The notes: generated from the sequence alone by a model not told the origin. DNA of 64,000 nt from Candidatus Moraniibacteriota bacterium (GCA_963778555.1 CAVZUR010000005.1:97756-161755), one strand, 5' to 3'; counted from the first letter of the stretch, positions 1-34,456 are shown. Translations and numbers: made by a program.

Positions 1-1650
1 GTCACCAATGGTGCAGGGAGTATTACCATCGCTTCGACTCTGGGTGTGGCTGTCGACAGCGCTGAAATCACCGACAATGACCTGGACTTCATCGATTTCC
101 AGAATACGATGGATCTCGATGCCAACCTCACCCTGAATCAGACCACATTTACTTGGGACCCAGTCCTTCACCGGCACCACAACCAATGGCTACACCTACA
201 CCGCCGCCTCCCTCACCACGGGCTACGCTATGGACCTGAACGTCAACGGTGCCGTCCTCACCTCGGTGGCGCCATCAACATCGACGGCCGACTGGCGCGG
301 CAACTACCGGCTCCTTCAAGATTACGACCACGGGGCGGTGATGGCGGGGAGCTTCAAATCTCTGCCACCGCCACGATGCCTCTATATCAATCTCGGATGC
401 CGCGGCAATGACGACCGACTGGTGATCACCCCGCCGCCCTCGCACGGCTACCAGGACTGGTCAACGGCGACGCCACCTCACCCGGGTGCGCCATCGACAT
501 GACGGAACGACCGGAGTACTGCACTGCCGGATCCTCAAGATACGACGACTGGCGCCGCGAACCGGCACTGATCTCGGGACTGCCTCCGATATGCTCGCCC
601 CTCCAGAACGTCGCCTCTACCGTAGCTAGGCACGATGACGACGACGGGCGACTTGCTCACCCTTACTGCAAACTCGGCCACTAGTGCGACGGGACTTCTC
701 ACAATTGATGGCGGTAATGCGATGACAAGTGGTGGGGCCCTCAACATCACCGGCACTACCTATAATCATGGTGCTGATTTTGAAGAAGCCACTCTCGTGG
801 CTGTTGCTTATTCCGATACGACCTCTGGCGCTTTCAACACTACCACCTACGGCCTTGCGTCAACCCGACCATCAACATCACCACCGGTGCCGGCTCCAAA
901 GACAACAGTGCTATCTTCGTTCAACCATACCTCTGTACCGGTGCCACCCATTAATGTCTGTCCGGGACTCACGGATGCTCGGACATGGAACGACCAGGCC
1001 ATAAATGTTGGTTCTGGCTGGGATACGTATTCAACTCCTTTTCGCTCGATATCTCTGGTACTGGCGCCATCACCGGAGCGACGGGGATCACCTCGAGTGG
1101 CTCTATCACCTTTAGTGCCTTTACCAGTAATGGTGGTCCGCTCTACACCAACGGTTCGGGTGTCATCGCTCAAACCACTGCCGGGACAGCGACCCAAGTC
1201 CTCCATGGCGGTACTGCTCCAAGCTTCTCGGCCATTGTTGCTGCGGATATTACCGCTGACTCCCTCGACTTCACCGAATTCCAAGACACCCTCGATCTCG
1301 ATGCGGCCCTCACCCTGAACCAGACCACCAATACCTGGACCCAGTCCTTCACCGGCACCACCACCACCGGCTTCGCCTACACCGCCACTTCCCTCACCAC
1401 TGGCTCCGCCCTCAATGTCACTACCACCAATACCGCCACCGCCAACACCGCCCTCTCACCGGTTCAGTTCAATCTGACCAATGCTCAATCCACCCTCGCG
1501 AATACAGCTGGCATCAATGGAGTGCAAGTCAACTTCACCAACAACCCATCCATTGCGGGAAACACCGAAAATGCGGTTCGGATTCAGAACCAGGTCACGC
1601 GAACGTCACAGACAATGCGGTCGCTCTCTCCTCCTCCTCGACAACGCCGA
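1..1650 (+). pseudogene. Frameshift-riddled 5' continuation of the giant surface-fibre gene (gene start lies outside the window)
   Basis: ORFs in three + frames (46-411, 230-502, 635-1318, 985-1818) each carry pieces of motifs that are in frame further downstream: DSLDFxxFQDTLDLDAxLxLNQTTxTWxQSFTGTTT at ~61, ~1255 and ~3001, and YAMDLNVNGA at ~220 and ~3150. Aligning 61-700 to 3001-3420 by eye shows 1-3 nt indels, e.g. tgggacccagtcc vs tgggatcagtcc. Confidence 0.6.
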
Positions 1651-4600
1651 TACTACCGCCACTGGCACCACCATCGTCACCGATGCCATCGCCATCACGA
1701 ACTCAGGCGGATCCAACTTCACCAACTTCCTCAATACCCCGACCCTCGACATCAGTGCGGCGGGGGCCATCACCGGAGCGACGGGGATCACAAGCTCGGG
1801 GAACATCACGTTCTCTAGCCTCACCGCTGGCTCTGTCCTTTTTGCGGGGACGTCGGGTATTCTCCAGCAAGACAATGCCAACTTCTTCTGGGATGATACG
1901 AACAATAGATTGGGGATCGGCGACACCACGCCCGATGGGCGGTTCGACTTCGACCTAGCCTCCACCTCGACGACGGCCGCGAATGAATACGGCGGTAACT
2001 ATACGTTCACGGATACTGGCGTCGTCACAACCGGTACGGACAATACTATCGGAGAGTCGGTCACAGTCACTCGGACCGGCGCGACCGGCGGGACGATCAG
2101 CACGTATGGAAGCCTCATCACGGCCACCGCCGATACGGCGGGCGCGGGCACGTCTGCCATTATCGGCCAGTATGTGACGGCCTCTGGCGCCGACACCACG
2201 TATGGGTTTTACGCCAATGTGACAGGTACGACCAGCGCGACTTCCTATGGCTATCTGTCGAACGTGACTGATGCCACGACAGGTGCCAATACCAATTATG
2301 CCGAGGCGCTTCAGATAACAGACACTGGTGTCGTGACGGCAGGTACGGATATCACGGTGGGCGACTATATCACCGTCACTCGAACCGGCGCGACCGGCGG
2401 GACGATCAATACCTACGGGGACGAAATCATCATAACGACGGACAATGCTGGTGCGGGCACGAGTACTGCCACTGGTGAGCTTATCGATACCGGTACGGCT
2501 GGAACGACGAATGCCGATACGACCTACGGCCTCTATGTCGCTACTGAAGCCAATGCCGGAACGACAGCGTTTGGCATCTATGTCGATGCGGGTATCCAGG
2601 CTGGAACCGAATACGCAGGCATCTTTATGAATGGCAATGTCGGTGTCGGGGATGCGACACCTCTCTCACTCTTCACTGTCGGCAATGGTGACCTCTTCCA
2701 GGTCAATTCGAGCGGTGCGATCGCCGCTGCCGCTGGTGTCACCTCTTCCGGTACCATCACCTTCTCTGGTCTTTCCACGGCCGGTATCGTCACCAACACT
2801 GCTGGTGGCGTCCTGGGGACGACCACGGCCGTCGCCGCGACCCTCGGCGGCACGGGCTTCTCCTCCTATGCGGTGGGTGATCTCCTCTACGCCAATACCA
2901 CGACAAGTCTCGCCAAACTCGCTGATGTGGCGGCGGGCAGCTGTCTCATCTCGGGGGGTGTCGGTGTAGCACCGACATGGGGAGTGTGTGGCGCGATCTC
3001 GGCTGACTCACTGGATTTTGTCGACTTCCAAGACACCCTCGACCTCGATGCCAATCTCGTCCTCAATCAAACCACCTTTACTTGGGATCAGTCCTTCACG
3101 GGGACGACGACCAATGGTTTCACGTATACGGCGGCGTCTCTGACCTCGGGCTACGCTATGGACCTGAACGTCAACGGTGCCGCCGTCCTCACCTCGGGCG
3201 GGGCTCTGAATATCGACGGCCCGACCGGTGCCGCGGCTCAGGCGGCGGGCTCACTTTTCAAGATCACGACCACGGGAGCAGTGACCGGGACGGACGGGAG
3301 CGGCAATTCATCGCAGATCTCGAGTGCGACGGTGACCGGTACTGTGTCGTCTATCTCGGATGCCGCGGTCATGACGACGACCGGTGACCTCCTCACCCTG
3401 ACCGCCAACGCAGCGACGACCACGACCGGCCTCCAGACGATCAATGCCACTGGTCTCACCACGGGCTATGCCATGGACCTGAACGTCAACGGTGCGGCGG
3501 TGCTCACTAGCGGTGGAGCCATCAATATCGACGGTCCGACGGGCGCGGCGGCTCAGGCCTCTGGTGCGCTCCTCAACATCACGACCACGGGAGCGGTCAC
3601 CGGTACGGCCGGTATCGGCAACTCACTCCAGGTGACGAGCGCTACCGTGACAGGCACGGTCGCCTCTATCACCGATGCGGCCACGATGACCACGACCGGC
3701 AATCTCCTCACTCTCACGGGCAATGCGGCGACGACGGCAACGGGCCTCCTCACGGTGAATGCCAACGGCCTCACGACGGGGAGTGCAGTGAACATCGCAT
3801 CGACCGCGACGGGACTCACGACCGGTGGCGCACTGCAGACCATCACACATTCGGGCTCGAATGCGGCCAACATCGGTTCGCTTCTCTCGCTCCAAAACAC
3901 CGGGACAGCCAGTGGCAACATCAGCCTCCTCATCCAGCACAATGCGACGGGAACAGGTAATCTGGCGTTCCGAGTCAACGATATCGCCGGCGATACGACA
4001 CCCGTGGTCATCGATGGCACGGGCCAGTTCGGTATCGGGACAGCTGCGCCGACGACATTGTTCGAGCTGTACGGCACCGGGTCGGCGGACGCGATCGCGA
4101 CGTTGACCGCGCCGGATGCAACCTTTGATCCGATCCTGAAGTATCGCACTGGCGCCACTCCGGCCGTCCAGTTCTCGCTCGGCATCGACAACACTGACTC
4201 GGACAAGTTCAAGATCTTCTCGGGTGATGGCGTCGGCTCGGGCGATGAATTCGTCATCGATAGTAACGGTGTCACGACAATCGCCAACCTGAACCTGGGT
4301 GCGACGACCTTCGACTCGGACGCCGGCGCGATCGTCTGGACGGATATGCCGGTGACGGCGACGACCGCCGCTGCGACCGTGATGAGCTATAGCGCGCAGA
4401 TTGATGCGACGAATCTCATGACGATGTATTCCGAGAGCAACGGTACGGGCGGCATTCAGAATACGCGTGTCGGTATCCTGACGACTGCCCCGCTTGATGT
4501 GCTGCATGTAGCTGGTGATGTGCGCGTCGGTACGGGCACCACGGGCTGTGTAAAAGACGCAGACGCGACGGTATTGACGGGAACCTGCTCTTCGGACGAA

Positions 4601-5629
4601 CGATTGAAGAAGAATATCATCCCGTTTGATAGTGTCCTGGATAATCTCGCCTCATTGACGCCCGTTACCTACAACTGGAGAAGTGATGAATTTCCGGATA
4701 AGCATTTCGGAGAAGCTGTGCAGCGCGGTCTGATTGCTCAGGATGTACAACGGGTATTTCCAGAGCTTGTGAAACAGGATGACGATGGCTATCTGCAGAT
4801 TGATTTTTCGAGCATTCAGTTCTATCTCTTGCAAGGTATCAAGGAAGAATACGCGTTGATTCAAGACCAATCAAACAGTATCGCCGCATTGTCTCTGGAG
4901 ACGACAGCTAGTATCACGACCTTGTCTGAACTCGAAGCAGCCGTTGAGGGACAGTTGATACTCGCGAGCGCGAACTTCACGACGCTGGCGGAAAAAGATG
5001 CCTTGATTGATACCAAACTGACAGAACATGATACGTACTTCGCCCGCGACCTGGCGCGGCTCGACGCAATTGATGCGCTGACGGCTCAGATGGCGCTCGA
5101 TCAGAACGCAGCCGCGGCCAACCTGGTGACGCTTCAGACTGAAATGACGGTTTTGACCGAGCAAGTCGGCACGCTCATGGAATTCTTCAACACGCTGGAC
5201 CTCGGCAATATGGTCGCGAAAGACGAGCTCGGCAATGTCGACCTGCTCGGCGGCACGCTCCGGGCCACTGCGCTCGCCACTGGCGGTATCACTATCGAAG
5301 TTGCCGATGAAGAGGCTCCGACCATTGGAACAGCGATGATCCTTCCAGTCGAGACGGACGCGGACGGCGATGGCAAAGATGATGAGACTGGTTCGGACGG
5401 CAAGAGTACGAGCGTCCTGACAAAAGCAATGATCCCGATGATCAACGGCTCACGCATCTTCACGAGCTTCAAGGGCAATCCGAACGCGTTTAGCTGGATC
5501 GAAAAGATCGTCACTGATGACGGGGAGTATGTCGGATTCAAGATCCGCGTCTCGGCGCCGGTCACGGAAAAGATCAAGGTCGACTGGTGGCTGATCGAGC
5601 AGAAGGATACGTTCTCGTCGAATCCATAA
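1481..5629 (+). CDS. Giant Thr/Gly/Ala-rich repetitive surface fibre-like protein with a C-terminal tail-fibre intramolecular chaperone (Peptidase_S74-like) domain
   Basis: 1382-aa uninterrupted ORF with low-complexity T/G/A/S repeats and an internal 105-aa tandem repeat. It continues with CSSDERLKKNI...VTYNW...GLIAQDVQRVFPELV, an Ala/Leu/Glu-rich helical segment and a ~150-aa terminal domain. Genuine coding appears to join this frame only near ~1620; the listed ATG is not the real start. Confidence 0.8.
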   Translation: MLNPPSRIQLASMECKSTSPTTHPLRETPKMRFGFRTRSRERHRQCGRSLLLLDNADTTATGTTIVTDAIAITNSGGSNFTNFLNTPTLDISAAGAITGATGITSSGNITFSSLTAGSVLFAGTSGILQQDNANFFWDDTNNRLGIGDTTPDGRFDFDLASTSTTAANEYGGNYTFTDTGVVTTGTDNTIGESVTVTRTGATGGTISTYGSLITATADTAGAGTSAIIGQYVTASGADTTYGFYANVTGTTSATSYGYLSNVTDATTGANTNYAEALQITDTGVVTAGTDITVGDYITVTRTGATGGTINTYGDEIIITTDNAGAGTSTATGELIDTGTAGTTNADTTYGLYVATEANAGTTAFGIYVDAGIQAGTEYAGIFMNGNVGVGDATPLSLFTVGNGDLFQVNSSGAIAAAAGVTSSGTITFSGLSTAGIVTNTAGGVLGTTTAVAATLGGTGFSSYAVGDLLYANTTTSLAKLADVAAGSCLISGGVGVAPTWGVCGAISADSLDFVDFQDTLDLDANLVLNQTTFTWDQSFTGTTTNGFTYTAASLTSGYAMDLNVNGAAVLTSGGALNIDGPTGAAAQAAGSLFKITTTGAVTGTDGSGNSSQISSATVTGTVSSISDAAVMTTTGDLLTLTANAATTTTGLQTINATGLTTGYAMDLNVNGAAVLTSGGAINIDGPTGAAAQASGALLNITTTGAVTGTAGIGNSLQVTSATVTGTVASITDAATMTTTGNLLTLTGNAATTATGLLTVNANGLTTGSAVNIASTATGLTTGGALQTITHSGSNAANIGSLLSLQNTGTASGNISLLIQHNATGTGNLAFRVNDIAGDTTPVVIDGTGQFGIGTAAPTTLFELYGTGSADAIATLTAPDATFDPILKYRTGATPAVQFSLGIDNTDSDKFKIFSGDGVGSGDEFVIDSNGVTTIANLNLGATTFDSDAGAIVWTDMPVTATTAAATVMSYSAQIDATNLMTMYSESNGTGGIQNTRVGILTTAPLDVLHVAGDVRVGTGTTGCVKDADATVLTGTCSSDERLKKNIIPFDSVLDNLASLTPVTYNWRSDEFPDKHFGEAVQRGLIAQDVQRVFPELVKQDDDGYLQIDFSSIQFYLLQGIKEEYALIQDQSNSIAALSLETTASITTLSELEAAVEGQLILASANFTTLAEKDALIDTKLTEHDTYFARDLARLDAIDALTAQMALDQNAAAANLVTLQTEMTVLTEQVGTLMEFFNTLDLGNMVAKDELGNVDLLGGTLRATALATGGITIEVADEEAPTIGTAMILPVETDADGDGKDDETGSDGKSTSVLTKAMIPMINGSRIFTSFKGNPNAFSWIEKIVTDDGEYVGFKIRVSAPVTEKIKVDWWLIEQKDTFSSNP
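3143..3772 (+). repeat. Two in-frame 315-nt (105-aa) tandem repeats inside the giant protein
   Basis: T(S/T)GYAMDLNVNGAAVLTSGGA(L/I)NIDGPTGAAAQA...SATVTGTV.SI.DAA.MTTTG.LLTLT.NAATT.TGL occurs twice, starting at 3143 and 3458. A degraded, frameshifted third copy lies at ~205-700. Confidence 0.85.
4586..4870 (+). other. Peptidase_S74-like intramolecular chaperone / autoproteolysis domain (domain-level feature)
   Basis: The S-D-E-R-L-K-K-N motif, with Ser at the expected self-cleavage position, is followed by PVTYNW and GLIAQDVQ. These are signature elements of the phage tailspike/endosialidase C-terminal chaperone domain (recalled as Pfam PF13884). Confidence 0.7.
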
Positions 5630-7843: not shown

Positions 7844-7921
7844 ACCTTTTGTTTCGAGGGAATCAACACCAATCCACAACCATAGTATACATGTTTTTCC
7901 GGCTTTTCTAAACCATGGAGG

Positions 7922-8740
7922 CTATTTGTCAAGTAGCCCGAGATTATGTCGGATGACACTTCGAGTTTCCTCGAGACCGGCCGCGTAGAGGGCTGGATCA
8001 TTTCCCGGATACGCCCGGCCCCAATCAGTTGGGCTCATGTGTTCGCTTGCGAGGAGTGCGGTCTCTAGAGCCTTTCGAGCAGCTTCTTTTTCTCCAAGAT
8101 TGAGGAGCGCGGTACCATAAATGTTGTTCAGCCAGGGATTGCCGTGAGCCTGTCTGAGGCCGGCTGCTGCTGTGTCGCGAGTCTTTTCATACTCACCTAG
8201 CTTGAAGTAAATCCACGCCAAGTCGTTGTAGCCGGCCCAATTGAAGGAATCGCGTTTGATGAATTCGCTGAATCCCCAGATTGCGCTTTCATAGTCGCCT
8301 CTATATCCACTAATGAGCCCCTGCATATAGTAGGCCCGCTTGAATTCAGGATCTATACGGAGTACGGTGTCCATCTCAATCCGCGCCGATTCGAATCTTC
8401 CACTGATGAAATGGATGCGTCCGAGCTGGAAATGCGCTTCCAAAAAATCAGGATGTAATTCAATCGCTCTTGTGTAAGCAGACTCCGCTTTCTTAATGTC
8501 ATATGCTTCTCCATCCCCGAAATAGCTATCGCCGATTTTTAGAAACAGATCTGGATTGCTACGATTAACGAAAGTGGCAACCGTTTCCAACCCAAGACCG
8601 GGCCAGAAGGAATAGAGTTGCGGGATATGGAAACATGCGTAGGTACTGGAGAAAAGGGCAATAACAGTCCCAACCAACAGCACAGTGGAGGGCCTCATTT
8701 TGAGAGTCAGAGAAGTGATGGAATCCGTGATTTTATTCAT
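7922..8740 (-). CDS. Tetratricopeptide-repeat protein with an N-terminal membrane anchor
   Basis: 272 aa. TM segment VLLVGTVIALFSSTYACF, followed by repeated TPR-like units (A..Y..AI.L.P.F.EA...LG, YY.QG...G.Y..A...F, AW.YFKLGEYEKT). Confidence 0.75.
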   Translation of the reverse strand: MNKITDSITSLTLKMRPSTVLLVGTVIALFSSTYACFHIPQLYSFWPGLGLETVATFVNRSNPDLFLKIGDSYFGDGEAYDIKKAESAYTRAIELHPDFLEAHFQLGRIHFISGRFESARIEMDTVLRIDPEFKRAYYMQGLISGYRGDYESAIWGFSEFIKRDSFNWAGYNDLAWIYFKLGEYEKTRDTAAAGLRQAHGNPWLNNIYGTALLNLGEKEAARKALETALLASEHMSPTDWGRAYPGNDPALYAAGLEETRSVIRHNLGLLDK

Positions 8741-8807
8741 GCATGATTCCAGTATAATATATCATGTTGAGATAGTATTTTTGCAGAAAAAACAGTTGTC
8801 GTTGTGT

Positions 8808-10277
8808 TCATGGGAACATATGCGGCAACGGATTCAGCTTCCACTCGGTGACACCTTTGGAAGCAGCGAATTCCTCCAAACGGTCGCTGTCGAAGGTGCC
8901 CTGGCACTCGAGGAGATAGAGGGGGAAAGCCTTCGGTACATAGACTTGGGCGATGTAGAACCCGAGCTTGGCTTGGATGGGATGCTTGGGGAAATAGGCA
9001 ATCGGGTAGTAGTCAGGGCCTCTTTTTCTCAGAACGGAGAGGCAGGCTTTCAGTTGGGTAGCATCATCGGTCGCTGAGGTGAGATCCTTTTGGCAGAGTT
9101 CCGCGTAGGAAACCTGCTTGCCGGAGAGGAACCACTGGAATTGCTGGATCTTTTCGGGACCGCGCCAGTAGAGTTGCCGTCCGATTTGACCGAGAACAGA
9201 AACGAATGGTTCGGATTGAGCATCCTTTTCCAGCTGCCGCTTATCACCCTCGTAATAAAACATTTCTGAGCTTATCACTATTTCTCTTAGAGAATGCCGT
9301 ATCGCTTGTTCGAATGTTGTCGCACTGGCGCCGCTCAGAACAATCTGAGGAGTCGCGCTCTTTGAGTTTAGGGCAGCAATAACGATAGACGGAATAGAGA
9401 GCGTTGTCACATCTACGATATGTAAAGACAGGCCGCATGATTCCAACGGGCGTATGATTTCCTGCATCTCCTCGGGGAGTGTTTCTACATCAATGATCCG
9501 CGGAGGAATCTGAGTGAGCCAGTGGACCAAGAATGCATCGCGCTCGATTGTTTCGAGGAGCCCACGCAGGAGAGCGCCATTTTTTGTGAAGTACCCGGCT
9601 GATCCGCTGGTCGTGGCGTTGACGAGAGGGGCTTCAGTGGAATAATTTTTGACGCACCATGAGGTCACTTGCCGCGGGATATACGTTTGTTCTTGCGTAA
9701 TGAGATTAATTCCACTCAGCCAATCCATCGGACGGGACGGGTCATGCTGGAGTTCCCGGTAATGCTCTCTTTGGATGTCCAAGAAGCGATGGTATTTCGG
9801 CGGGTAGAGTACTGGAAACTTTTTGAGCAGTTCGTTCGATGAAGCGATTAGTATGTCGGTATCCTTATTATACAAACCAGAAATGATGCGCTCAAGCATT
9901 TCGCCGATCGCTTTGGAAATAGCAGTCGCCCTATCTTTCGCAATCCCATGGCCGCTCACGCTCCGAAGATGTCCACGCACGACTACTTCTTTTTCCAGGG
10001 AATAAAAAAAGTATCCGGGAAAATGGAGACTTCTTTCTGCCATCGCATCGACGAGCCCTTTTTTTTTCAGATAAGTGTAAAGGGTTTCAGAGGCAGAGGT
10101 GACATCATCCGTGTGAGCAATATGCAGACTGTCCGCAAGCCAGGAATATCGGACGAATTGTTTTAATAAGCAAATCCGTATCCGATCGCCGATTCCCAGC
10201 GGTATTCGCCAGGGTCCGAACTTGTCCATAATTGGTTTCTTTCGTTTGATTTCGTCTGGTCTAACCGAATGTACCAA
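8808..10277 (-). CDS. YcaO-domain protein (cyclodehydratase-type), copy 1, intact
   Basis: 489 aa. VSGHGIAKDRATAISKAIGEMLERI (YcaO ATP/Mg motif region), TTSGSAGYFT, LLETIERDAFLVHW and the Pro-rich C-terminus NPLPHMFP (PxPxP-like). An alternative start MDKFGPW at 10229 aligns with the paralog. Confidence 0.8.
   Translation of the reverse strand: MVHSVRPDEIKRKKPIMDKFGPWRIPLGIGDRIRICLLKQFVRYSWLADSLHIAHTDDVTSASETLYTYLKKKGLVDAMAERSLHFPGYFFYSLEKEVVVRGHLRSVSGHGIAKDRATAISKAIGEMLERIISGLYNKDTDILIASSNELLKKFPVLYPPKYHRFLDIQREHYRELQHDPSRPMDWLSGINLITQEQTYIPRQVTSWCVKNYSTEAPLVNATTSGSAGYFTKNGALLRGLLETIERDAFLVHWLTQIPPRIIDVETLPEEMQEIIRPLESCGLSLHIVDVTTLSIPSIVIAALNSKSATPQIVLSGASATTFEQAIRHSLREIVISSEMFYYEGDKRQLEKDAQSEPFVSVLGQIGRQLYWRGPEKIQQFQWFLSGKQVSYAELCQKDLTSATDDATQLKACLSVLRKRGPDYYPIAYFPKHPIQAKLGFYIAQVYVPKAFPLYLLECQGTFDSDRLEEFAASKGVTEWKLNPLPHMFP
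8815..9178. repeat. Identical tract A shared in inverted orientation with 13299-13661 (364 vs 363 nt)
   Basis: The reverse complement of 8815-9178 matched 13299-13661 base for base where I compared it. The only difference is one C missing from a C5 run in the second copy (C4 at 13552-13555). Confidence 0.85.
9670..9919. repeat. Identical tract B shared in inverted orientation with 12544-12793 (250 nt)
   Basis: The reverse complement of 9670-9919 equals 12544-12793 by eye. It encodes AFSKAIGEMLERIISGLYNKDTDILIASSNELLKKFPVLYPPKYHRFLDIQREHYRELQHDPSRPMDWLSGINLITQEQTYIPR in both paralogs. Confidence 0.85.
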
Positions 10278-10359
10278 TATACAGAGTGATGTGGATAGTT
10301 TTACATGGAGATGTCATACAAGTACACCTACGTTTCTCCTGGTGTATTTTATCATGCAT

Positions 10360-10394
10360 AAAAAAACAGGAGCCATGTGACAACACGACTCCTG
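10360..10394 (-). terminator. Rho-independent terminator (minus strand) after the 10426-11241 gene
   Basis: Minus-strand stem caggag/ctcctg (10367-10372 / 10389-10394) followed by T7 (A7 at 10360-10366 on the plus strand). A second small hairpin, ccctca-gcgtt-tgaggg, lies just upstream. Confidence 0.6.
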
Positions 10395-10425
10395 GAATTT
10401 GCACCCTCAGCGTTTGAGGGCAGTC

Positions 10426-11241
10426 TCAATTACTTGCAGCGGCAGATTCCTTTTGGAAGACCGTGCTGTTTTGCCCATCACTCCCGCCATAACCGGCCCA
10501 CAGCTCATCGCCATGATTGGTGAAATAACATGTTCCACCCGCTCCCCCGCAGGGGAAAGCGAATTTCCCGTCCTTGATCTCTGCGGACTGGATCTTGCCG
10601 CTTGGTTTTTGCTGTGTGCCGTATATGAATTTGACCACACACTTCGCGTCGATTTCGCCGATCCAGAGCCACCGCTTGCCATAGCCCCAGTTTCCTGTCC
10701 AGCCACCGATGAAGGCGGCACAGGCTACTGGCACGTCGGCAGCCACCGGCTTGACCGAAAAGCCAGCTTCACGCTGAGGTTGCAAAGCCGCCAATTCTGT
10801 TTCGGCAAGTTTTCGGATGCTGACCGCCCGGGACTGTCCATTTGCGTCCGTGATAGTCCCGTTAAACGTGCCGTCTGGGTTTTGGGATGCTACGACCTTG
10901 CCCCCCAATCGGGTAATAAGCGATAACGTACGACCTTGAGCGGTCTCAATCATCTCTGCGCTAATCGGGAGCGGTTGCAGTCTCGGAAGACCGAGAGCAG
11001 CGTTGAGCGCGACTTTTCCAGTGTCGCCTTGTTTCGTTCCGCCAGAAAGCTGCAACGTCAGTGTTCGGTCGCTGCCGACGACCGTAATGAGCCATGAAGA
11101 GTTCAGATCGAATGGCAGCTGACTTGTCAGTGCCGCCAGAGTGATACTGTCGCTAGAGGCCTTCATCTGGGCGAAGCCAATGCTTGGCAGGCTGGAAAAA
11201 ACAGAGAAAAAAACCGAAAAGAGAATCGAAAGTGCCCGCAT
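10426..11241 (-). CDS. Secreted protein of unknown function
   Basis: 271 aa with a signal-peptide-like N-terminus, MRALSILFSVFFSVFSSLPSIGFAQ. No motif recognised. It sits between the two YcaO genes and is divergent from the SagB-like gene. Confidence 0.7.
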   Translation of the reverse strand: MRALSILFSVFFSVFSSLPSIGFAQMKASSDSITLAALTSQLPFDLNSSWLITVVGSDRTLTLQLSGGTKQGDTGKVALNAALGLPRLQPLPISAEMIETAQGRTLSLITRLGGKVVASQNPDGTFNGTITDANGQSRAVSIRKLAETELAALQPQREAGFSVKPVAADVPVACAAFIGGWTGNWGYGKRWLWIGEIDAKCVVKFIYGTQQKPSGKIQSAEIKDGKFAFPCGGAGGTCYFTNHGDELWAGYGGSDGQNSTVFQKESAAASN

Positions 11242-11397
11242 GATAAACTACTCCTTGGTTGATTGGTAAGGGACAGCACCGCCACTATACCATATTTGCT
11301 ATATAAGTCAAATAGTAGTATTCCGTTTACGCATTGCTTTAAGTGCCGCTTTTTTTCTGCATTCTTCATTTACGACATATAATGGAAAGACCTCCGT

Positions 11398-12141
11398 ATG
11401 CATACATTTCTCTACAATTTTTTTCATCACGAGACCAATGATCGGACGGAAAAGGGCCTGGTGAGTATTCCGGCAGACAAGGGGCGCTGGCCGGAGTCAT
11501 GGAAAACGATAACGTGCAAACGGTATTCTCTGTTTCCGGAGGTTGAGCTTCCTGAAACGAGCGGGTCTTTGTTTGAGCAGCTCTTGCGAGAACGCAGATC
11601 GAGCGAAGGGCATATCGTGGGGAATATCCTCACTCTGCCCGTACTTGCCTATATCCTGCAGTGTGGGTATGGCCTGCAGGGCGGGAGCGAAGGAGATCAG
11701 AGGAAAGCGAACCGAACCGTTCCTTCCGGCGGGGGACGATATCCGCTCGAAGTGTATGTTTTTCTCTTCAAGCCGATTGGCACTTGCGTTTCGGGAATCT
11801 ATCATTACAGTGTGAAGCATCATTCCTTGGAACCAGTTGCGCTCATGCCATTCACGCTTGAAGATATTGGTTCTTTCGCACCGGAGCAGGCGTGGCTCCA
11901 GGATACGAACGGGATGATTTGCATCACGAGTGTGTTTCAGAGAACGGTTGAAAAATACGGCAGCCGCGGGTATCGCTACATCTTGCTGGAGGCTGGGCAT
12001 GCTGCTCAGAATATGCTGCTCGCCGGAACCGAAAAGGGCGTGAACATCATCCCGATTGGCGGCGTAGAGGCTGATAAAATAGAAAAAAAACTTGGCCTGA
12101 GCGGGGAAGAAGAAGGGGTCGTGTATACGCTCTTTTTATAA
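11398..12141 (+). CDS. SagB-type (nitroreductase-fold, FMN) dehydrogenase
   Basis: 247 aa. RTVPSGGGRYPLEVYVF, GIYHYSVKHHSLEPV, QRTVEKYGSRGYRYILLEAGHAAQNMLLAG and IPIGGVEADKIEKKLGLSGEEEGVVYTLFL match the SagB/ThcOx dehydrogenase signature (R..PS.G..YP.E.Y; KYG.R.YRY.L.EAGH..QN). Confidence 0.8.
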   Translation: MHTFLYNFFHHETNDRTEKGLVSIPADKGRWPESWKTITCKRYSLFPEVELPETSGSLFEQLLRERRSSEGHIVGNILTLPVLAYILQCGYGLQGGSEGDQRKANRTVPSGGGRYPLEVYVFLFKPIGTCVSGIYHYSVKHHSLEPVALMPFTLEDIGSFAPEQAWLQDTNGMICITSVFQRTVEKYGSRGYRYILLEAGHAAQNMLLAGTEKGVNIIPIGGVEADKIEKKLGLSGEEEGVVYTLFL

Positions 12142-12152
12142 TAAACCCTAGT

Positions 12153-13668
12153 ATGCGGAGCGACTCCTCTTCAAAATTTTTCCATTGCTCGGGATACCTC
12201 TCCCTTAGGGAGTATGTGGAGGATATCGAGTCGATGAGGCAGCATGGCCCGTGGCGGCTCCCGCTCGGCATCGGCGACCGGGTGCAGATTTTCTTTTTCT
12301 CCCTGATTCTGAAATACTCCTGGTTTTCTGATGCGTTGAGCATACGGTATCCCTATACGTGGAGCCCAGCGTATTCGGTGCTCATCGCCTATCTGAAAAG
12401 GTGTGGCGTAGTCGATGTGGTCCGGGAGCAGAATGCGAATCGCAGCGGATATTCCTTCTTCTCCCTTCAAAGGGGCATTTCCATAAATGAAAATATTCGG
12501 ACCATCGGCGGTCTGGGAGTCGACCAAGAGGTCTCGACGGCGTTTTCCAAAGCGATCGGCGAAATGCTTGAGCGCATCATTTCTGGTTTGTATAATAAGG
12601 ATACCGACATACTAATCGCTTCATCGAACGAACTGCTCAAAAAGTTTCCAGTACTCTACCCGCCGAAATACCATCGCTTCTTGGACATCCAAAGAGAGCA
12701 TTACCGGGAACTCCAGCATGACCCGTCCCGTCCGATGGATTGGCTGAGTGGAATTAATCTCATTACGCAAGAACAAACGTATATCCCGCGGCATATTGTT
12801 TCGTGGTTTGGGTTTGCCGAAGCGCGCGTGTTCAAAGACATTCTCCTGCATCCGACATCCAATGGCTGTGCCGGGTACTTTACGAAGACGGGTGCTGTTT
12901 TGCGAGGGCTGATCGAAGCAGTGCAACGGGACGCTTTTCTCGTCCATTGGCTCACGCAGATCGCCCCTGATCGCATCATCGAGGACACTCTGTCGCTAGA
13001 AATTCAGAAACAAGTCGGGGAATTCAAGGCGCGTGGAATCACCCTGCATATTCTCGATGTCACAGCTCTTTCTATCCCGTCCGTATCCATTGTGGCAATC
13101 AATGCTGAATCGGAAACTCCGCAGATTATTTTGAGCGGCGCAGAGCGGCGACATTTGAGCGGGCGGTGCAGGACGCACTCCGTGAAATGGTGCTGATGTC
13201 AGCGACTATGTTCTACCAAGGAGAAGCTAATAATAGAAAGAAAGAGCCTATGTTAGCAGAGCCGCAGCCATTCGTTTCTGATCTCAATGAGAAAACCAGG
13301 CAACTCTACTGGCGCGGTCCCGAAAAGATCCAGCAATTCCAGTGGTTCCTCTCCGGCAAGCAGGTTTCCTACGCGGAACTCTGCCAAAAGGATCTCACCT
13401 CAGCGACCGATGATGCTACCCAACTGAAAGCCTGCCTCTCCGTTCTGAGAAAAAGAGGCCCTGACTACTACCCGATTGCCTATTTCCCCAAGCATCCCAT
13501 CCAAGCCAAGCTCGGGTTCTACATCGCCCAAGTCTATGTACCGAAGGCTTTCCCCTCTATCTCCTCGAGTGCCAGGGCACCTTCGACAGCGACCGTTTGG
13601 AGGAATTCGCTGCTTCCAAAGGTGTCACCGAGTGGAAGCTGAATCCGTTGCCGCATATGTTTTCTTGA
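12153..13668 (+). pseudogene. YcaO-domain protein, copy 2, interrupted by two 1-nt deletions (about 13141-13147 and 13552-13555)
   Basis: ORFs 12153-13196 and 13166-13642, plus a third frame to the stop at 13666-13668, together reconstruct a full YcaO colinear with copy 1. IILSGA|AATFERAVQDALREMVLMSATMFY requires a +1 shift. KAFP|LYLLECQGTFDSDRLEEFAASKGVTEWKLNPLPHMFS requires another, at a C4 run that is C5 in copy 1. Confidence 0.75.
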
Positions 13669-13777
13669 TGAGCGATACAGGTTGTGGAAAGAGGAGACAT
13701 CGTGTATCGTTTATAGTGTACGCGGTACCGGAGAGTCACGAGACAAATATAAATCATTTCAGGCCGTGTTAGCGAGT

Positions 13778-14470
13778 ATGTTTCAGAAAGTCAGGCGAGT
13801 TGCGAGCAGAAAACTCCTGTTTCTTGTTGGCGTATCTTTGGCCGGTATCCTTGGCATCCTGGGCAGTTATACGCGGACGAACTATTCGAAAAGCGGTTCG
13901 CTGGTTGTCCCAAAGGCGCAGGCGGATACCCCTCCCACTTGTGCTTCGTGCGGTTGCGCCTATACTGAGGACCAATGCGTTACATACTGGTCCTGTTTTC
14001 CGGCCGACACGCCTATCAGCACACCAGCCGGTAAGCGAGTCATACAGGAGCTGGCGGTCGGAGACAGCGTGCTTGGTTTCGACATTGAAACCGGCCGGAC
14101 CGGAGAATACCCGGTGACCAGAACCTTCAAACACGGCCGAAACGATGCGAATACCGTGTATTCTCCGCTGATTCAGATTACGCATGCAAAAGGATCGTTC
14201 CTCGCGACGGATAATCATTGGATCTATCGGCGCAATGGCCGGGTCGGGGAATACGCCAATTTTGACCGTGTCGGAACGCTTCAAGTCGGTGACATGCTGA
14301 CGACAGAAAGCGGCGAAGAGGTGGCGGTGACAGCGATCGAACCGGGGCCCGAGTATGATTTTGTGTACAATCTCGAGGTGGCGGAGGCCCATACGTATTT
14401 CGCTAGCGGTATCCGGGTACACAATAGCGGCAGTGGACCTGGTGGCTGTTGTGGCTCTTCAGGAAAATAA
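13778..14470 (+). CDS. Small membrane-anchored Cys/Ser/Gly-rich peptide interrupted by a complete Hint/mini-intein domain
   Basis: 230 aa from the ATG at 13778 (the ORF track starts at a TTG at 13682). Residues 1-72: basic N-terminus, TM LLFLVGVSLAGILGILG, then TPPTCASCGCAYTEDQCVTYWS. Residues 73-216: Hint domain. Residues 217-230: SGSGPGGCCGSSGK. Confidence 0.8.
   Translation: MFQKVRRVASRKLLFLVGVSLAGILGILGSYTRTNYSKSGSLVVPKAQADTPPTCASCGCAYTEDQCVTYWSCFPADTPISTPAGKRVIQELAVGDSVLGFDIETGRTGEYPVTRTFKHGRNDANTVYSPLIQITHAKGSFLATDNHWIYRRNGRVGEYANFDRVGTLQVGDMLTTESGEEVAVTAIEPGPEYDFVYNLEVAEAHTYFASGIRVHNSGSGPGGCCGSSGK
13994..14425 (+). other. Mini-intein / Hint domain (144 aa) with all canonical class-1 splicing residues
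   Basis: Cys1 (CFPADTPISTPAG), block B TxxH (LATDNHWIY), C-terminal blocks EYDFVYNLEVAEAHTYFASGIRVHN, and a +1 Ser. No homing-endonuclease insert is present. Confidence 0.8.
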
Positions 14471-14534
14471 AGCTGCTTTTTCGGATGGGAGTAATTTGCA
14501 GCCAAAATACTTTTAATCACCACGAGTTGTTATT

Positions 14535-15761
14535 ATGGAAACTGAAGCCGATATCCGAACTCCCGCTGGAGACTCGAGGGAGAAAAATAAAAAGATTCGG
14601 TTGACCGGAAAAGTCGTTCTTGTTGTCATGCTAATAGTCGCCCTTGCATATGGGGCGTTGTATTTGTTCGAGAAGAATACCTGGTATAAATTGAGATCCG
14701 ATCGGACAATTTATACACCGGCCAATGATAACGCGTATACCGAAAGTCTCCTAAATAATAATCCGAAGCTATTGCAGGATTCGTTTGTGGCCGATGTCGA
14801 AAGCGGAGTGAATGATAAGTTTACCAAGTCAGATGCCTATTTCCTGACCCACCGGTACTTTGATAACGGCGGAAATGTCTACGAAATCTATGATTATGTA
14901 AACAGCCATCCGAGTCTGGAATTTCTCAAGGAAGCCGAAGAAATTTACCCGGCTATTTTTGATCAGCTACGGACCAAAACGCTTTCCCCGGTGCCATATT
15001 CCAGGCAATCTCTGTATGCAGTTCTGGCATATCTGGAAGTACTTGATAAGCACGGGTATGCGGATATCGCCGCTCTGGGCACGCTCGCTAATCAATATGC
15101 GAAGACGGCCTATTTCATAAAAAAGAGATCAGAAAACGATCCTGCTGGTGGCTTGGATCCGGCTCCAATGATACGGCAAGCGACGGAAAAAGCGATTGTG
15201 TTCGAATTGAAAACCAGAGATGTGATGCTGGGAATGTCTAAGGGTAATCAGTCTCTCGTGAAAAGTATAGCGAGTCGACCGAAATCGCTTGATTCGAGAT
15301 CGCCTCTGCGGAAGAATTTTTCGAAGGAAATAACAGCCCAATCATTGATTACCGGACTTAATCAGTATGCCGCCTGTCTTCGATATTTGGAGGTCACGGG
15401 AATTGCCATCTCGATCATCGATTCACCCGTGCAAGCGAATGATGTTTTTTCCTTCAGCATGTTATTTGCAGAAACCTATGTTCCAGAAATGGAGGTATTT
15501 ACGTCGCTCCTCAATGCCTCGACGCTCGCTTTGGTGAGTCCGGAGAGTGCTGATGCTATCAAGACTGCTCTCCAACCGATTCTGGAGTACGATCTTACTC
15601 AAGAATTGGGGATAATTCGCCTTCTCTTTGAGGCGAAGGACGACAAATTCGGCGGCTGGGATATATATGGAAAAAGGAATGCCATAATGCTGGCCAATAT
15701 CGTTCCTGAGTTCAAGGCATGGCTTATTGCGGGAGGGTGGGAAGAACCTGATTTTCAGTAG
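14535..15761 (+). CDS. Membrane-anchored protein of unknown function
   Basis: 408 aa. N-terminal TM VVLVVMLIVALAYGALYLF followed by a mostly helical soluble region. No motif recognised. Same strand as, and immediately after, the Hint gene. Confidence 0.7.
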   Translation: METEADIRTPAGDSREKNKKIRLTGKVVLVVMLIVALAYGALYLFEKNTWYKLRSDRTIYTPANDNAYTESLLNNNPKLLQDSFVADVESGVNDKFTKSDAYFLTHRYFDNGGNVYEIYDYVNSHPSLEFLKEAEEIYPAIFDQLRTKTLSPVPYSRQSLYAVLAYLEVLDKHGYADIAALGTLANQYAKTAYFIKKRSENDPAGGLDPAPMIRQATEKAIVFELKTRDVMLGMSKGNQSLVKSIASRPKSLDSRSPLRKNFSKEITAQSLITGLNQYAACLRYLEVTGIAISIIDSPVQANDVFSFSMLFAETYVPEMEVFTSLLNASTLALVSPESADAIKTALQPILEYDLTQELGIIRLLFEAKDDKFGGWDIYGKRNAIMLANIVPEFKAWLIAGGWEEPDFQ

Positions 15762-15875: not shown

Positions 15876-16571
15876 ATGAAGACGGTTTTGATTATCGGAG
15901 GGTCTTCGGGGATTGGAAGCGCCTGCGTACGTACTTTCGAACAATCAGGGTGGAATGTTTTTTCCACCTTCTATTCAAATAAAAAAACAACCAGCAAAGG
16001 ATCTTCCGTCACCTGGAGCTTCCTAGACATAAAGAATATTCCAGCTGGTTTTTTTGATACCCTGCCAAAAATCGATGCGGTGCTAATTTGTGCTGCCAAA
16101 AATGTAAGCCAGGACCTGAATAATTTACAGAAGAGTGACACAGAGGAAATTGTAAACACGAATCTCATCGGACAGATTGAGTTCATCAAACTCCTCAAGG
16201 ATAAAAAGGGTGCGGAGCTGTCCTCGATAGTACTTTTCGGCTCGACCGTGCCAATGACAGGTTTTAAAAGAAGAATCGCTTACGGTATAACGAAAGCCGC
16301 GATAGAGGGCCTTACGAAAACGCTGGCAATGGAATTTTCCCCCAATACCCGCGTGAATTGCATTGTACCGGGATATATCAAGACAGGTTTGTATTTCAAA
16401 AATAGCGCTATCAGTGATACGGATAGAGCAAGGAAAATCCTTTTAGGGCGGTTGGGCGACCCGGAAGAGGTTGCAAAACTTGCCTTTTTCCTATCTTCGG
16501 AAAACGCTTCCTATATAAACGGAGAATCGATTGGGATTAATGGCGGTTTTAACTATGAGTATGAAGTCTAG
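15876..16571 (+). CDS. Short-chain dehydrogenase/reductase (candidate ribulose-5-P reductase half of a split CDP-ribitol synthase)
   Basis: 231 aa. LIIGGSSGIGSA (TGxxxGxG-type NAD(P) site) and YGITKAAIEGLTKTLA (YxxxK). It overlaps the downstream cytidylyltransferase gene by 17 nt. Confidence 0.75.
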   Translation: MKTVLIIGGSSGIGSACVRTFEQSGWNVFSTFYSNKKTTSKGSSVTWSFLDIKNIPAGFFDTLPKIDAVLICAAKNVSQDLNNLQKSDTEEIVNTNLIGQIEFIKLLKDKKGAELSSIVLFGSTVPMTGFKRRIAYGITKAAIEGLTKTLAMEFSPNTRVNCIVPGYIKTGLYFKNSAISDTDRARKILLGRLGDPEEVAKLAFFLSSENASYINGESIGINGGFNYEYEV

Positions 16572-17247
16572 CAATGGTAAGTTTGCGTGTATAATTCTTG
16601 CTGCAGGCAAGTCCGAAAGGTTTAATGCGAATAAACTCTTTGCGACCCTTACCAAAGGACCCCTTCTTTTTATGGTTGTCGATTCCATTTTATCTTTTAA
16701 GTTGCTTGGTAAGTTAGTGATTGTCGCAGCGAAGGGGGATTTTGATCGAATTCAGAAAAGATATGGACGGAATCAAGAAGTGAACGTCGTTGTCGGTGGA
16801 ATAAACCGAACGGAAAGCACGCTACGGGGCCTGCATGTTGTCGCACAGGGGGGATACGAATATGTCTATGTTCACGACGGATCTCGCCGACTCTTTACGA
16901 GAAATGATTTTATCCGGCTCAAGAGAGAGTTGCTGTCAAAGAATCTGGATGGAGTTGTCCAATATGTCAAGATATACGATTCGCTCATGAGTTTCGATGG
17001 GAGTATTGAAAACAACAATAGTTATCTCGACAAAACGAGGGTAGTGCAATTAAAGACACCCCACGTTTACAAAGTGGGTTCAATCTTAAAATGTCTGACT
17101 CAGTATAAACCTCAAGTCAGGAGAGAATTGGAGAACGTTGAAATCATGTCTTTGTACGGGAAAGAAATAGGATTTATCGATGGTTCTATCGCCAATATAA
17201 AAATTACTTACAAAAGTGATTTACGGGTCATTAAAAAGCTGTTGTGA
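16555..17247 (+). CDS. IspD/TarI-family sugar-phosphate cytidylyltransferase
   Basis: About 230 aa from the ATG at 16555. CIILAAGKSERF (ILAAGxGxR P-loop-like motif), VHDGSRRL. Its stop overlaps the GTG start of the next gene (gtga at 17244-17247). Confidence 0.7.
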   Translation: MSMKSSNGKFACIILAAGKSERFNANKLFATLTKGPLLFMVVDSILSFKLLGKLVIVAAKGDFDRIQKRYGRNQEVNVVVGGINRTESTLRGLHVVAQGGYEYVYVHDGSRRLFTRNDFIRLKRELLSKNLDGVVQYVKIYDSLMSFDGSIENNNSYLDKTRVVQLKTPHVYKVGSILKCLTQYKPQVRRELENVEIMSLYGKEIGFIDGSIANIKITYKSDLRVIKKLL

Positions 17248-19388
17248 AAAAGATATCTTTCGTCGTCTATTATCCGTATCAGTGGTTTATCTATCGGAAT
17301 ATCTATAGACAGATACCGGCTGACAAGCGGGAAGTCATCGTTGATCTGAGCGATAATCCGGGACTTCAGGATGAGGAAGTAAGGATGAGCATCGCTTCTT
17401 TGCTTCAACGAGAGAGCGTTCCGTTTCGGGTCCTCGAGAAAGTGATTTGTTTCAATCGGAAACTGCTTCAGGATTTTTTCACTGATGTCGAGGTCATCGT
17501 ATCTTGCTGGGAAAACGGTTGCGTGTCGAACAATGCCCTGCGACATATTAAAAAAGTAAACGTGACTTACGGAATAGCCAAAGAATTGACGATGCTCCGG
17601 CCAACGCGTTCGATCTACGATGTCATATTGGCGTATGGCGCGCGTGATCAGCGGTATTTCGAATTGCTCACGAAATCCATAGCCATCGGTAATCCGCGAC
17701 TGGACAATTATTACCGTGGCATAGCTGATGATTCCATTCGGGAAAAACTGTCAAGATATTTCAAAGATAAAAAAAAGAAAACCATACTGTATGTTCCGAC
17801 TCACGGAGATCTCGGGTCATTTCATGAAATGTTACCTACGTTCGCACGGATATCGAGACAATATAATATCATTTTTAAGCCACACTATTATACTTTGAGG
17901 GAGGAGAAAGAGATTATAGAAAAGTACCGGCAGATAGAGTCGCTTTTGGTCATCGATGACACGTGGGACACGATTGAAGTTATGTCCGTAAGCGATATCA
18001 TCGTGAGCGATAACTCGAGCGCTATTTTCGATGCGATGCAGATCGATAAGCCGTTAATCGTATGTGATTTTCTGGATAATCAATTTATAGATACTATTCA
18101 TAAAAAAATCCGTCTTGCAAAAAAAGGAACGGGAATACTTACGGCGCTGACGTATTCAGACAGTTTGGAACAGGAGATAAAAAGAGGAGGTCTAGCAATG
18201 ACCATAAAAAAACCGAATGATATTGATGACCTTCTGGAAAACATAGATGACACAGACGGCCGGTATCGGGACTTTCGGAAAGAAATCGTTGCTGCGAATT
18301 TCAAATATGTTGATGGTCATTCGTCTGAAAGAGCTGTCGAGATCATTCTGCGAATATACGGCACGAAGAGGACGCATGTGCCGGGTATCCTGCACCATGC
18401 ATACCTCGCGTATAATAACCGAGCGTATCAATGGAGTATCGAATCTGAACACAAGGAAACTGTCCTTACGACTGTCCCGAGTACGACCATTGTCTGGATT
18501 TTCTGCGAGTTGCGTCAGAAGAATGATGAGATTATATGCACCATCTACTCAGCATTGAACGAAAAGGAGGTCACCACAGTCTGTGTTTCGGGGAGTGTCG
18601 GAAAAGATGTGCGTGACACTCTTTCACGGAGTGAATTCTCTGACAGGATTATATTTTTTGAAAATCATGCAGACGGGATAAATCTTGTTTATTCGCGGCT
18701 CGGCATCTGCGATAACCTTCTTGTGGTGAAGGCGAATACTATTATCAAAGACTTGAATACGATATGTAACTTCAAAGTATCCTGTAAACGAGACATGATC
18801 TTTTTTTCTGAAAATATTGTTCCTTTTCCAGAAAATTGGGTAAGCCGACTCTTTTATCAGTTGAAATATGAGATGCTTGGCTTTCGGAGTCTGGCAATGA
18901 ATACGCTGCTCTCTATCCCGTATGAGTTGATCTGTGCTTCCGAAAAGTGCGCCGTTCTCATCGATAGTAAGGCCCTGCTTGCTGTTTCACCACGGCCGGT
19001 TGTAGACACTTTTATCTTCGAGTGGGTTCTTTCGTCTTTTATTAACATTGATTCATTGAAAAGTCAGGGTCGCGATTTTTATGGTACGCTCTGCGATGAT
19101 TATATCCTTATGCCGAATTTCTTCATGAATGGTAGCCGGTCGGCCAATGCGGATATTATTAACAAACTTGTGGCAAAAGGACTGATATTGAATGCTTTAG
19201 GTATCCCCATAAAGCGGTGGCCGGATAAAAAAATCGGTAAACTGCTGTGGAAAATCGCGACTGGCGACTTCAGGCGCTATCAACTCTTGAAATTGATACT
19301 GTTGAAGGTGCTCACTGTGAAAAAGCAAGTATTTCTCAGCAAAGCCCGTTCTTTTTTGGAGAAGGTTTACGCAGATGACGCCCCATAG
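17244..19388 (+). CDS. CDP-alcohol (glycerol/ribitol) phosphotransferase, TagB/TagF/TarL family, with a ~330-aa C-terminal extension
   Basis: 714 aa. ILYVPTHGD, FKPHYYT and VSDIIVSDNSSAIFDAMQIDKPLIVCDFLD match the Glyphos_transf pattern (YaPT.R / KpHp / DYSS..fD....KP). The C-terminal half is unassigned; it may be a degenerate GT-A-like region, but I could not confirm this. Confidence 0.7.
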   Translation: MKKISFVVYYPYQWFIYRNIYRQIPADKREVIVDLSDNPGLQDEEVRMSIASLLQRESVPFRVLEKVICFNRKLLQDFFTDVEVIVSCWENGCVSNNALRHIKKVNVTYGIAKELTMLRPTRSIYDVILAYGARDQRYFELLTKSIAIGNPRLDNYYRGIADDSIREKLSRYFKDKKKKTILYVPTHGDLGSFHEMLPTFARISRQYNIIFKPHYYTLREEKEIIEKYRQIESLLVIDDTWDTIEVMSVSDIIVSDNSSAIFDAMQIDKPLIVCDFLDNQFIDTIHKKIRLAKKGTGILTALTYSDSLEQEIKRGGLAMTIKKPNDIDDLLENIDDTDGRYRDFRKEIVAANFKYVDGHSSERAVEIILRIYGTKRTHVPGILHHAYLAYNNRAYQWSIESEHKETVLTTVPSTTIVWIFCELRQKNDEIICTIYSALNEKEVTTVCVSGSVGKDVRDTLSRSEFSDRIIFFENHADGINLVYSRLGICDNLLVVKANTIIKDLNTICNFKVSCKRDMIFFSENIVPFPENWVSRLFYQLKYEMLGFRSLAMNTLLSIPYELICASEKCAVLIDSKALLAVSPRPVVDTFIFEWVLSSFINIDSLKSQGRDFYGTLCDDYILMPNFFMNGSRSANADIINKLVAKGLILNALGIPIKRWPDKKIGKLLWKIATGDFRRYQLLKLILLKVLTVKKQVFLSKARSFLEKVYADDAP

Positions 19389-34428: not shown

Positions 34429-34456
34429 TTCGTCCTTTCCGATTCGATTAGGGAAC

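Follow-up and report, generated by a model that had tools for sequence, protein, structure and literature searches.

Among the systems closest to the locus described here are the tufA and tufB genes of Salmonella and E. coli. Two papers give tuf conversion tracts of a few hundred nucleotides (nt), and according to them inversion is the outcome of up to 50% of recombination events at tuf (PMC5485169; PMC6735719, citing Hughes 2000). Our subject is a pair of inverted YcaO genes in a 64,000-nt stretch of DNA from Candidatus Moraniibacteriota bacterium (GCA_963778555.1, CAVZUR010000005.1:97756-161755), which we call the window; positions are counted from its first letter. The two genes share islands of perfect identity within strongly diverged sequence, and repeated segmental gene conversion between them, with occasional inversion as in tufA/tufB, is the probable explanation. 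Both systems have inverted paralogs, tracts of hundreds of nt (non-reciprocal in tuf and probably so here), and inversion of the intergenic segment. The tuf genes are described as ~99% identical over their full length, 762 kb apart, and RecA-dependent; unlike them, the YcaO genes are identical in two islands only, are otherwise saturated paralogs, and lie 2.5–4 kb apart. Segmental conversion is an established process; what is new is its occurrence in this gene family and this phylum, and islands and flanks differ here with unusual sharpness.

The pneumococcal hsdS genes carry inverted repeats of 15, 298, and 85 bp in their coding sequences, and the longer ones invert without a dedicated recombinase (PMC4948785). 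Like the window's genes, those in the hsdS invertons (Spn556II/SpnD39III) are inverted paralogs in which identical repeats alternate with variable modules, and one copy is complete while the others are partial. At the hsdS loci, a tyrosine recombinase lies next to the genes, the partner genes are truncated and promoterless, and within-clone switching of protein specificity has been demonstrated. In contrast, we found no recombinase at the YcaO locus, both YcaO genes have their own starts, and no chimera of the two variable segments (N and M, below) was seen among the relatives.

In the pilE/pilS system of Neisseria and the vlsE system of Borrelia, variable segments are copied via conserved flanks, which creates diversity. 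The window would resemble these systems in having non-reciprocal transfer between an expressed gene and a defective nearby paralog. In the window, however, it is the conserved segments that are homogenised while the variable ones stay distinct, and YcaO is a cytoplasmic enzyme rather than a surface antigen.

Identical tracts in two diverged YcaO genes

The two YcaO genes are head to head, and genes for a conserved cluster protein (p271) and a SagB-type dehydrogenase lie between them. The genes, their identical tracts, and the first frameshift are:

8808..10229, minus strand: YcaO copy 1 ("type 1"), intact, 473 amino acids (aa); PF02624 YcaO, E = 4e-38
12153..13668, plus strand: YcaO copy 2 ("type 2"), which is the canonical, SagB-linked copy and is broken in the assembly; its protein is a reconstruction from a three-frame translation
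9670..9919, minus strand: tract B, copy-1 arm; at the start of the YcaO domain, ~83 codons (SKAIGEMLER through TYIPR)
12544..12793, plus strand: tract B, copy-2 arm; exact inverted match to 9670–9919
8815..9178, minus strand: tract A, copy-1 arm; the 3'-terminal ~122 codons, ending in ...NPLPHMF
13299..13661, plus strand: tract A, copy-2 arm; holds the second frameshift (C4 run, 13552–13555)
13140..13141, plus strand: first frameshift of copy 2, in the unique M segment; one C is missing (GGCG-CAG, versus GGCGCCAG in copy 1)

Both copies match PF02624 above the cut-off; for copy 2, the match is on a 347-aa N-terminal fragment. Copy 1 aligns with the whole TIGR03604 (SagD-type) profile, at 151 bits (the curated cut-off is 219), and is identical to database protein P0001. 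Homologues come almost wholly from assemblies of Patescibacteria, or the Candidate Phyla Radiation (CPR), including Kaiserbacteria, Moranbacteria, and Paceibacterota.

We compared the copies with a repeat search of 7–16 kb, a global alignment of both genes, and direct string comparison. The initial annotation had described inverted tracts that are identical except for one C in a C5/C4 run, and this was borne out base by base. The repeat search gave three inverted pairs only, all of which belong to the tracts already described. Tract B is 9670–9919, the reverse complement of 12544–12793 (250/250 nt). Tract A consists of an inner piece (8922–9178, the reverse complement of 13299–13555; 257/257 nt) and an outer piece (8815–8921, the reverse complement of 13555–13661; 107/107 nt). 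These two pieces join at a C run, which is C5 in copy 1 (G5 at 8922–8926 on the plus strand) and C4 in copy 2 (13552–13555). Within the window, tracts A and B are found only in the two YcaO genes, and they make up ~40% of the gene.

Reading along copy 1, the order of segments is N (variable), B (identical), M (variable), and A (identical). Outside the tracts, DNA identity between the copies is 53% in N and 57% in M, and third codon positions are just 33–40% identical. Protein identity is 37% in N and 49% in M, which is lower than the 50–60% that had been estimated for the flanks. The longest exact runs outside the tracts are 10–13 nt. Because runs of ~8–10 nt are expected by chance at 53–57% nt identity, the runs of 250 and 257 nt are not due to chance. 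By the Nei-Gojobori method, the proportion of synonymous differences (pS) is 0.72 in N and 0.81 in M, or saturated, but 0 in A and B. Therefore, conservation or selection at the protein level does not explain the tracts. As a comparison for conservation, the orthologue from a related locus (L002, below) is 89% identical to the window across tract A at the protein level but only 86% identical at the DNA level.

The two frameshifts that had been reported in copy 2 are indeed present, as 1-nt deletions relative to copy 1: each is a missing C, and together they split the gene into three frames. The first is in M and the second is the C-run deletion inside tract A. If both are restored, then copy 2 encodes a protein of 505 aa with no other defect. 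Between copy 2 and its orthologue, the historical ratio of nonsynonymous to synonymous differences (pN/pS) is ~0.25–0.35, and this substitution pattern shows that copy 2 kept its function until very recent times. Whether the frameshifts are genuine or errors in the consensus is roughly an even bet.

Histories of the segments

For each segment, we built neighbour-joining trees with 200 bootstraps, using the two window copies and homologous genes from related loci (among them L002, L003, and L022). In both the N and M trees, copy 1 pairs with the L002 gene with 100% bootstrap support, so these two genes are orthologous in N and M. In the M tree, copy 2 groups with the SagB-linked type-2 genes of L003 and L022 (99%); in the N tree, the type-2 grouping is weak (50–64%). 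Single-copy taxa fall between both types in these trees.

The trees of the tracts are discordant with those of N and M. In the A tree, all five sequences form one clade (99.5%), and the type-1 gene of L002 is nested within it, beside the window; in A, and in no other segment, this gene is type-2-like. Also, between type 1 of L002 and type 2 of L003, pS is 0.51–0.68 across most of A but 0.70–0.96 elsewhere. Because the L002 gene is from a separate assembly, we take this discordance as a sign of homogenisation before the split: phylogenetically, it shows that A was homogenised between types before the window and L002 diverged. In the B tree, the window's common sequence pairs with type 1 of L002 (86.5%), and the type-2 genes join next (65%). 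At synonymous sites, too, tract B is nearest to L002's type 1 (pS of 0.68), yet it has amino-acid motifs of both types. B was probably likewise homogenised before the split. The perfect identity of the tracts at present is a further, very recent round of homogenisation.

N-type and M-type were linked in all five of the full-length genes, and we found no N1-M2 or N2-M1 chimera among the close homologues.

Related loci and their gene order

The genes around the two YcaO copies are needed to describe the relatives:

7922..8740, minus strand: tetratricopeptide repeat (TPR) protein (Pfam TPR families), downstream of copy 1; the left flank of the putatively invertible segment
10426..11241, minus strand: p271, a conserved protein of the cluster whose N-terminus resembles a signal peptide, without a match in Pfam or NCBIfam; upstream of copy 1
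11398..12141, plus strand: SagB-type dehydrogenase (PF00881; TIGR03605 at 108 bits, cut-off 78.4), directly upstream of copy 2
13778..14470, plus strand: candidate precursor peptide with a Hint/bacterial-intein-like domain (PF07591 PT-HINT, 1.5e-14; TIGR01443 intein C-terminal region)
14535..15761, plus strand: p408, conserved cluster protein of unassigned function; homologues follow YcaO or the precursor in L001, L002, L004, L008, L009, L010, and L017

Seven single-copy relatives have the canonical cluster: TPR(-), p271(-), SagB(+), YcaO(+), a small Cys/Gly-rich or Hint protein(+), and p408(+). The window has this cluster plus an extra, inverted YcaO between TPR and p271. Each of the window's YcaO genes has its own upstream gene as well as its own start.

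A scan of metagenomes for YcaO found 14 loci, and L003 is the only one of them with two copies. A scan of genome contigs gave one distant locus only (41% identical). L003 is a 9.5-kb contig from the Joint Genome Institute (JGI) that was assembled independently and is ~67–70% identical to the window at the nt level. It has the same head-to-head layout as the window's pair: a type-1-like YcaO and a homologue of p271 are on one strand, and SagB and a type-2 YcaO are on the other. L003 also has an identity island of its own. The 116 nt at the contig's end match 7877–7992 within its own type-2 gene at 100% identity, in inverted orientation; the island is at least 116 nt, as the contig ends inside the repeat. 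Before the island there are ~800 nt at roughly 60% identity. The island corresponds to the GYFTK...RDAFLVHWLTQI region, which is the most conserved motif of the family, and the window's copies are not identical there. Conversely, the copies in L003 are just 63% identical across the window's tract B. The missing 3' half of L003's type-1 gene was not among the homologues that we found.

Two other loci, L002 and L021 (from a second sample), are 99.8% identical to each other and 74–78% identical to the window at the nt level. Their order is the C-terminus of p271, a full type-1 YcaO, the Hint protein, p408, and the next gene. In other words, the Hint protein, which is 3' of copy 2 in the window, is 3' of the type-1 YcaO in L002. 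The order in L002 corresponds to 10699->8815 of the window joined to 13661->15927, which is the junction of an inversion between the arms of tract A. The initial annotation had proposed that conversion would also permit inversion, and the inverted order of L002 and L021, with a breakpoint in or at the end of a YcaO gene, agrees with this. The window's order looks ancestral and L002 looks flipped, because the seven single-copy relatives have SagB-YcaO upstream of the Hint or small protein and p408.

A few other observations concern these loci. Positions 1–1824 of L021 match 520–2345 of L002, with a 2-nt length change, and the YcaO of L021 was called as a truncated product of 304 aa; the cause may be an assembly error or a further indel or frameshift in a YcaO gene of this clade. 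Genes resembling those for teichoic acids (adh_short, IspD, and Glyphos_transf) are between the YcaO copies in L003 (1915–6382) and downstream of p408 in the window (15876–19388), which is a further rearrangement, beyond a single inversion. We considered if L009 and L017, from the same metagenome, were halves of one pair, but they have no identical tract in common. Similarly, the type-1-like protein P0004 is not an extra two-copy example: it is from an ordinary single-copy cluster.

Conversion and inversion as the explanation

The idea of recent conversion between inverted paralogs, which had been put forward for this locus as one of two possibilities, is supported by L003's own island, by the gene order in L002 and L021, and by the discordance of the segment trees. 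Under this explanation, the two YcaO genes would be ancient paralogs or xenologs, and tracts A and B would be islands in which one copy was very recently overwritten by the other, through non-reciprocal intrachromosomal recombination, while N and M kept separate histories. Older homogenisation of A, and probably of B, would predate the split from the L002 organism, and L003's island would have arisen separately. The inversion of the intergenic segment in the clade of the window and L002 would be due to one or more reciprocal exchanges within tract A or beside it. Both the 4.1-kb segment between the A arms (9179–13298) and the 2.6-kb segment between the B arms (9920–12543) should be invertible today.

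We envisage two routes to the islands. One would be RecA-dependent repair of double-strand breaks, seeded in the best-conserved stretches and confined by the heterology of the flanks. The islands do sit in well-conserved parts of the protein, which fits exchange of this kind: B is at SKAIGEMLER, which we take to be part of the YcaO ATP/Mg2+ site, and A is the C-terminal 122 residues with their proline-rich tail. The other route would be template switching, without RecA, from one closely spaced inverted repeat to the other; this is how quasi-palindromes become perfect, and it is a plausible alternative to strand exchange by RecA. Either way, the islands most likely arose incidentally from recombination and not as a designed device. 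The lengths of the tracts fit the few hundred nt of the tuf tracts, as given in PMC5485169 and PMC6735719.

Several points weigh against this explanation. With flanks of 53–57% nt identity and no common run above 13 nt, a RecA-dependent first event is hard to picture, and the edges of the tracts are abrupt. Neither the trees nor the synonymous distances to orthologues assign a donor and a recipient; copy 2 may be the donor or a decaying cassette, as the initial annotation had suggested. L003's island is cut by the end of the contig, and L002 is only 4.3 kb, so its second YcaO copy is inferred rather than seen. Finally, the exact 100% identity, the orientation of the inner segments (9179–13298 and 9920–12543), and the indels rest on one assembly.

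If correct, this is a clean natural case of conversion between paralogs that are otherwise saturated, proceeding segment by segment, recurring elsewhere in related lineages, and coupled to inversion in a sister taxon. The case is relevant to the question of how little homology exchange requires in the flanks, and to the roles of template switching and classical RecA at close inverted repeats. For natural-product mining, it means that CPR clusters can hold two YcaO enzymes with a common catalytic N-terminal motif region and a common C-terminus but with two segments that are distinct. The order and orientation of 9179–13298 and the status of copy 2 as a pseudogene call for caution pending spanning reads.

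Alternative explanations

The window is from a metagenome assembly, and the initial annotation had raised cross-contamination of the two copies during assembly or polishing. Similar copies might have been made identical by merging of bubbles, mis-resolution of repeats, or cross-mapped polishing, which would leave the orientation arbitrary and indels behind. One of the frameshifts is inside an exact repeat and a homopolymer, which is where short-read polishing typically fails. Exact inverted repeats of 250–364 nt leave the orientation ambiguous for short reads, and the closest relative has the other orientation. Also, other pairs of paralogs in the window have exact tracts. However, the corresponding segments are ~64–76% identical between types in other taxa, without long common k-mers, and would not collapse into sharp-edged tracts of 250–364 nt: popping of bubbles at most rounds ~97–99% identity up to 100%. 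The independent assembly of L003 has the same phenomenon elsewhere in the gene, the discordant trees of L002's single gene are independent of how the window was assembled, and the other window genes that we examined are intact, which argues against a general problem with indels. As the whole explanation, then, an artefact is unlikely, given L003, the order in L002 and L021, and the segment trees; the part of the suggestion that stands is that exactness, orientation, and the two indels come from a single assembly. The history might instead run in reverse, with a young, full-length inverted duplication whose N and M segments were later imported from foreign alleles. Mosaic identity alone does not show which segments are new, CPR populations exchange DNA, and type-1-like N and M sequences are present in single-copy clusters of other lineages. 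But this would require at least four precisely placed imports, and both N and M of copy 1 match the L002 gene, just as both N and M of copy 2 match the SagB-linked gene of L003 and L022. L003 also has the layout with two types in two positions, which implies that their divergence predates these taxa. We consider the reverse history to be extremely improbable.

The islands might also be maintained by selection as the crossover sites of a shufflon-like switch, analogous to the hsdS invertons, but we think this very unlikely. The layout (variable, identical, variable, identical) in two inverted paralogs, one of them apparently defective, mirrors the pneumococcal hsdS loci, and the isomer with tract A flipped is present in a sister taxon. 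In such a switch, flipping at A would choose which YcaO body is upstream of the precursor and p408, and hence which paralog is co-transcribed with the Hint-containing precursor and p408. Flipping at B would swap N-terminal modules and promoters between the bodies and would place the intact M1-A body after SagB and the N2 module. Yet flipping at A alters neither protein, and each gene already has its own start and upstream gene. The linkage of N and M types in the five full-length genes leaves no trace of shuffling via B. L003's island is elsewhere in the gene, and lineage-specific positions are unexpected for conserved switch sites. There is no recombinase nearby in the scanned open reading frames (ORFs): using Pfam and NCBIfam, we found no domain of a recombinase, integrase, transposase, or reverse transcriptase in the neighbouring ORFs or in most of the large ORFs of the window. 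The only recombination function that we identified in the window is a RecG-like helicase (59772–61502). No protein variants of the alternative isomer are on record (P0001 and P0100 are each the sole member of their cluster), and the other orientation was seen only in a different taxon (L002 and L021). It would thus be surprising if this were a recombinase-independent invertible locus with two cassettes, whose islands are kept by selection, for phase-variable peptide maturation in a CPR bacterium. Between these alternatives and gene conversion with occasional inversion, we prefer the latter.

Four other candidates were rejected. A mobile element that carries the tracts does not fit with their being confined to the two YcaO genes. 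A diversity-generating retroelement does not fit because the tracts are identical except for one C indel, without A-specific mismatches, and the scanned ORFs contain no reverse transcriptase domain. A cassette for antigenic variation or diversity generation is a poor fit, as conserved rather than variable segments are exchanged. Pervasive indel errors from long reads across the window were rejected because the other genes that we checked are intact.

The gene cluster

The window's cluster (7922–15761) belongs to a conserved CPR cluster that we also found in loci L001, L004, L008, L009, L012, and L023; p408 is sometimes duplicated. The SagB-YcaO pair is kept in all of the relatives that we examined. 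Homologues of p271 adjoin SagB-YcaO in L003, L004, L008, and L009 and are upstream of YcaO in L002, and homologues of the TPR protein flank the cluster in L001, L004, L008, and L012.

The cluster resembles those for thiazole/oxazole-modified microcins (TOMMs), or linear azol(in)es: it has a YcaO that aligns to the full SagD-type profile, a SagB above the cut-off, and adjacent small candidate precursors that are rich in Cys, Gly, and Ser. Unlike TOMM clusters, it has no detected SagC/E1-like partner, its YcaO is below the TIGR03604 cut-off, it includes p271, p408, and TPR proteins as partners, it has two YcaO paralogs, and the candidate precursor includes a Hint domain. Neither a SagC/E1-like partner nor one containing a recognition element (RRE) was found with Pfam and NCBIfam in the neighbouring genes or in the N-terminus of YcaO.

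Candidate precursors with a Hint domain

Judging from its sequence, the ORF after SagB-YcaO resembles a TOMM-type precursor into which a Hint/bacterial-intein-like (BIL) domain of ~150 aa is inserted. The Hint protein has matches in PDB to Hint/BIL domains. Versions with Hint are in the window (13778–14470, plus strand), L002 (1932–2618), L009 (3224–3919), L012 (4621–5442), and L022 (2518–2943), and versions that lack it are in L010 (1509–1850), L004 (11567–11800), and L017 (738–1031). By inspection, the candidate precursors have a conserved leader and cores rich in Cys, Gly, and Ser. The leader consists of M.QK.., a transmembrane helix, RTNYSK, and A.AD. After it comes a Cys-rich core (CASCGCAYTEDQCVTYWS), then CFPADTPIS...TDNH...IRVHN, and then SGSGPGGCCGSSGK. 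The homologues without Hint are colinear with both flanking pieces, and their tails are rich in Gly, Cys, Ser, and Asp.

In the window and L002, HN is followed by S, but in L009 and L012 by Y or R, so cleavage instead of splicing is possible. In the literature, we found no natural Hint-containing precursor of a peptide that is made by ribosomes and modified after translation (RiPP), no combination of YcaO with a Hint domain, and no report of this CPR cluster. Among the subset of matches for inteins and RiPP precursors that were judged by title or abstract, the uses were all engineered.

Other mosaic or repetitive genes in the window

Elsewhere, the window is ordinary chromosome, with NusA, trigger factor, ClpP, ValRS, TsaD, RecG, tRNAs, and the teichoic-acid-like genes. 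Two tandem family-2 glycosyltransferase paralogs (20892–21851 and 21907–22875, plus strand) are also mosaics. They have an exact run of 473 nt (20861–21333 versus 21876–22348), which is followed by a patch of 52–62% identity; beyond the patch, identity is mostly 78–100%, with exact runs of 53–170 nt, and it drops towards the 3' end. The explanation is either frequent recombination among paralogs of this genome or a particular handling of repeats by the assembly.

A family of genes with type IV secretion system (T4SS) pilin domains (PF18895) is at 33386–38241 on the plus strand (for instance, 35591–36400 and 37246–38241). The N-terminal parts of these genes are diverged (45–57% nt identity), and the C-terminal parts are 95–100% identical. 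A 76-nt motif occurs six times across 33.6–38.2 kb.

Finally, a protein of 1382 aa (1481–5629, plus strand) has internal direct repeats (D6–D10) and a Peptidase_S74 (endosialidase chaperone) domain near residues 1038–1098. These features suggest a large, repetitive protein, either a surface protein or one like a tail fibre.

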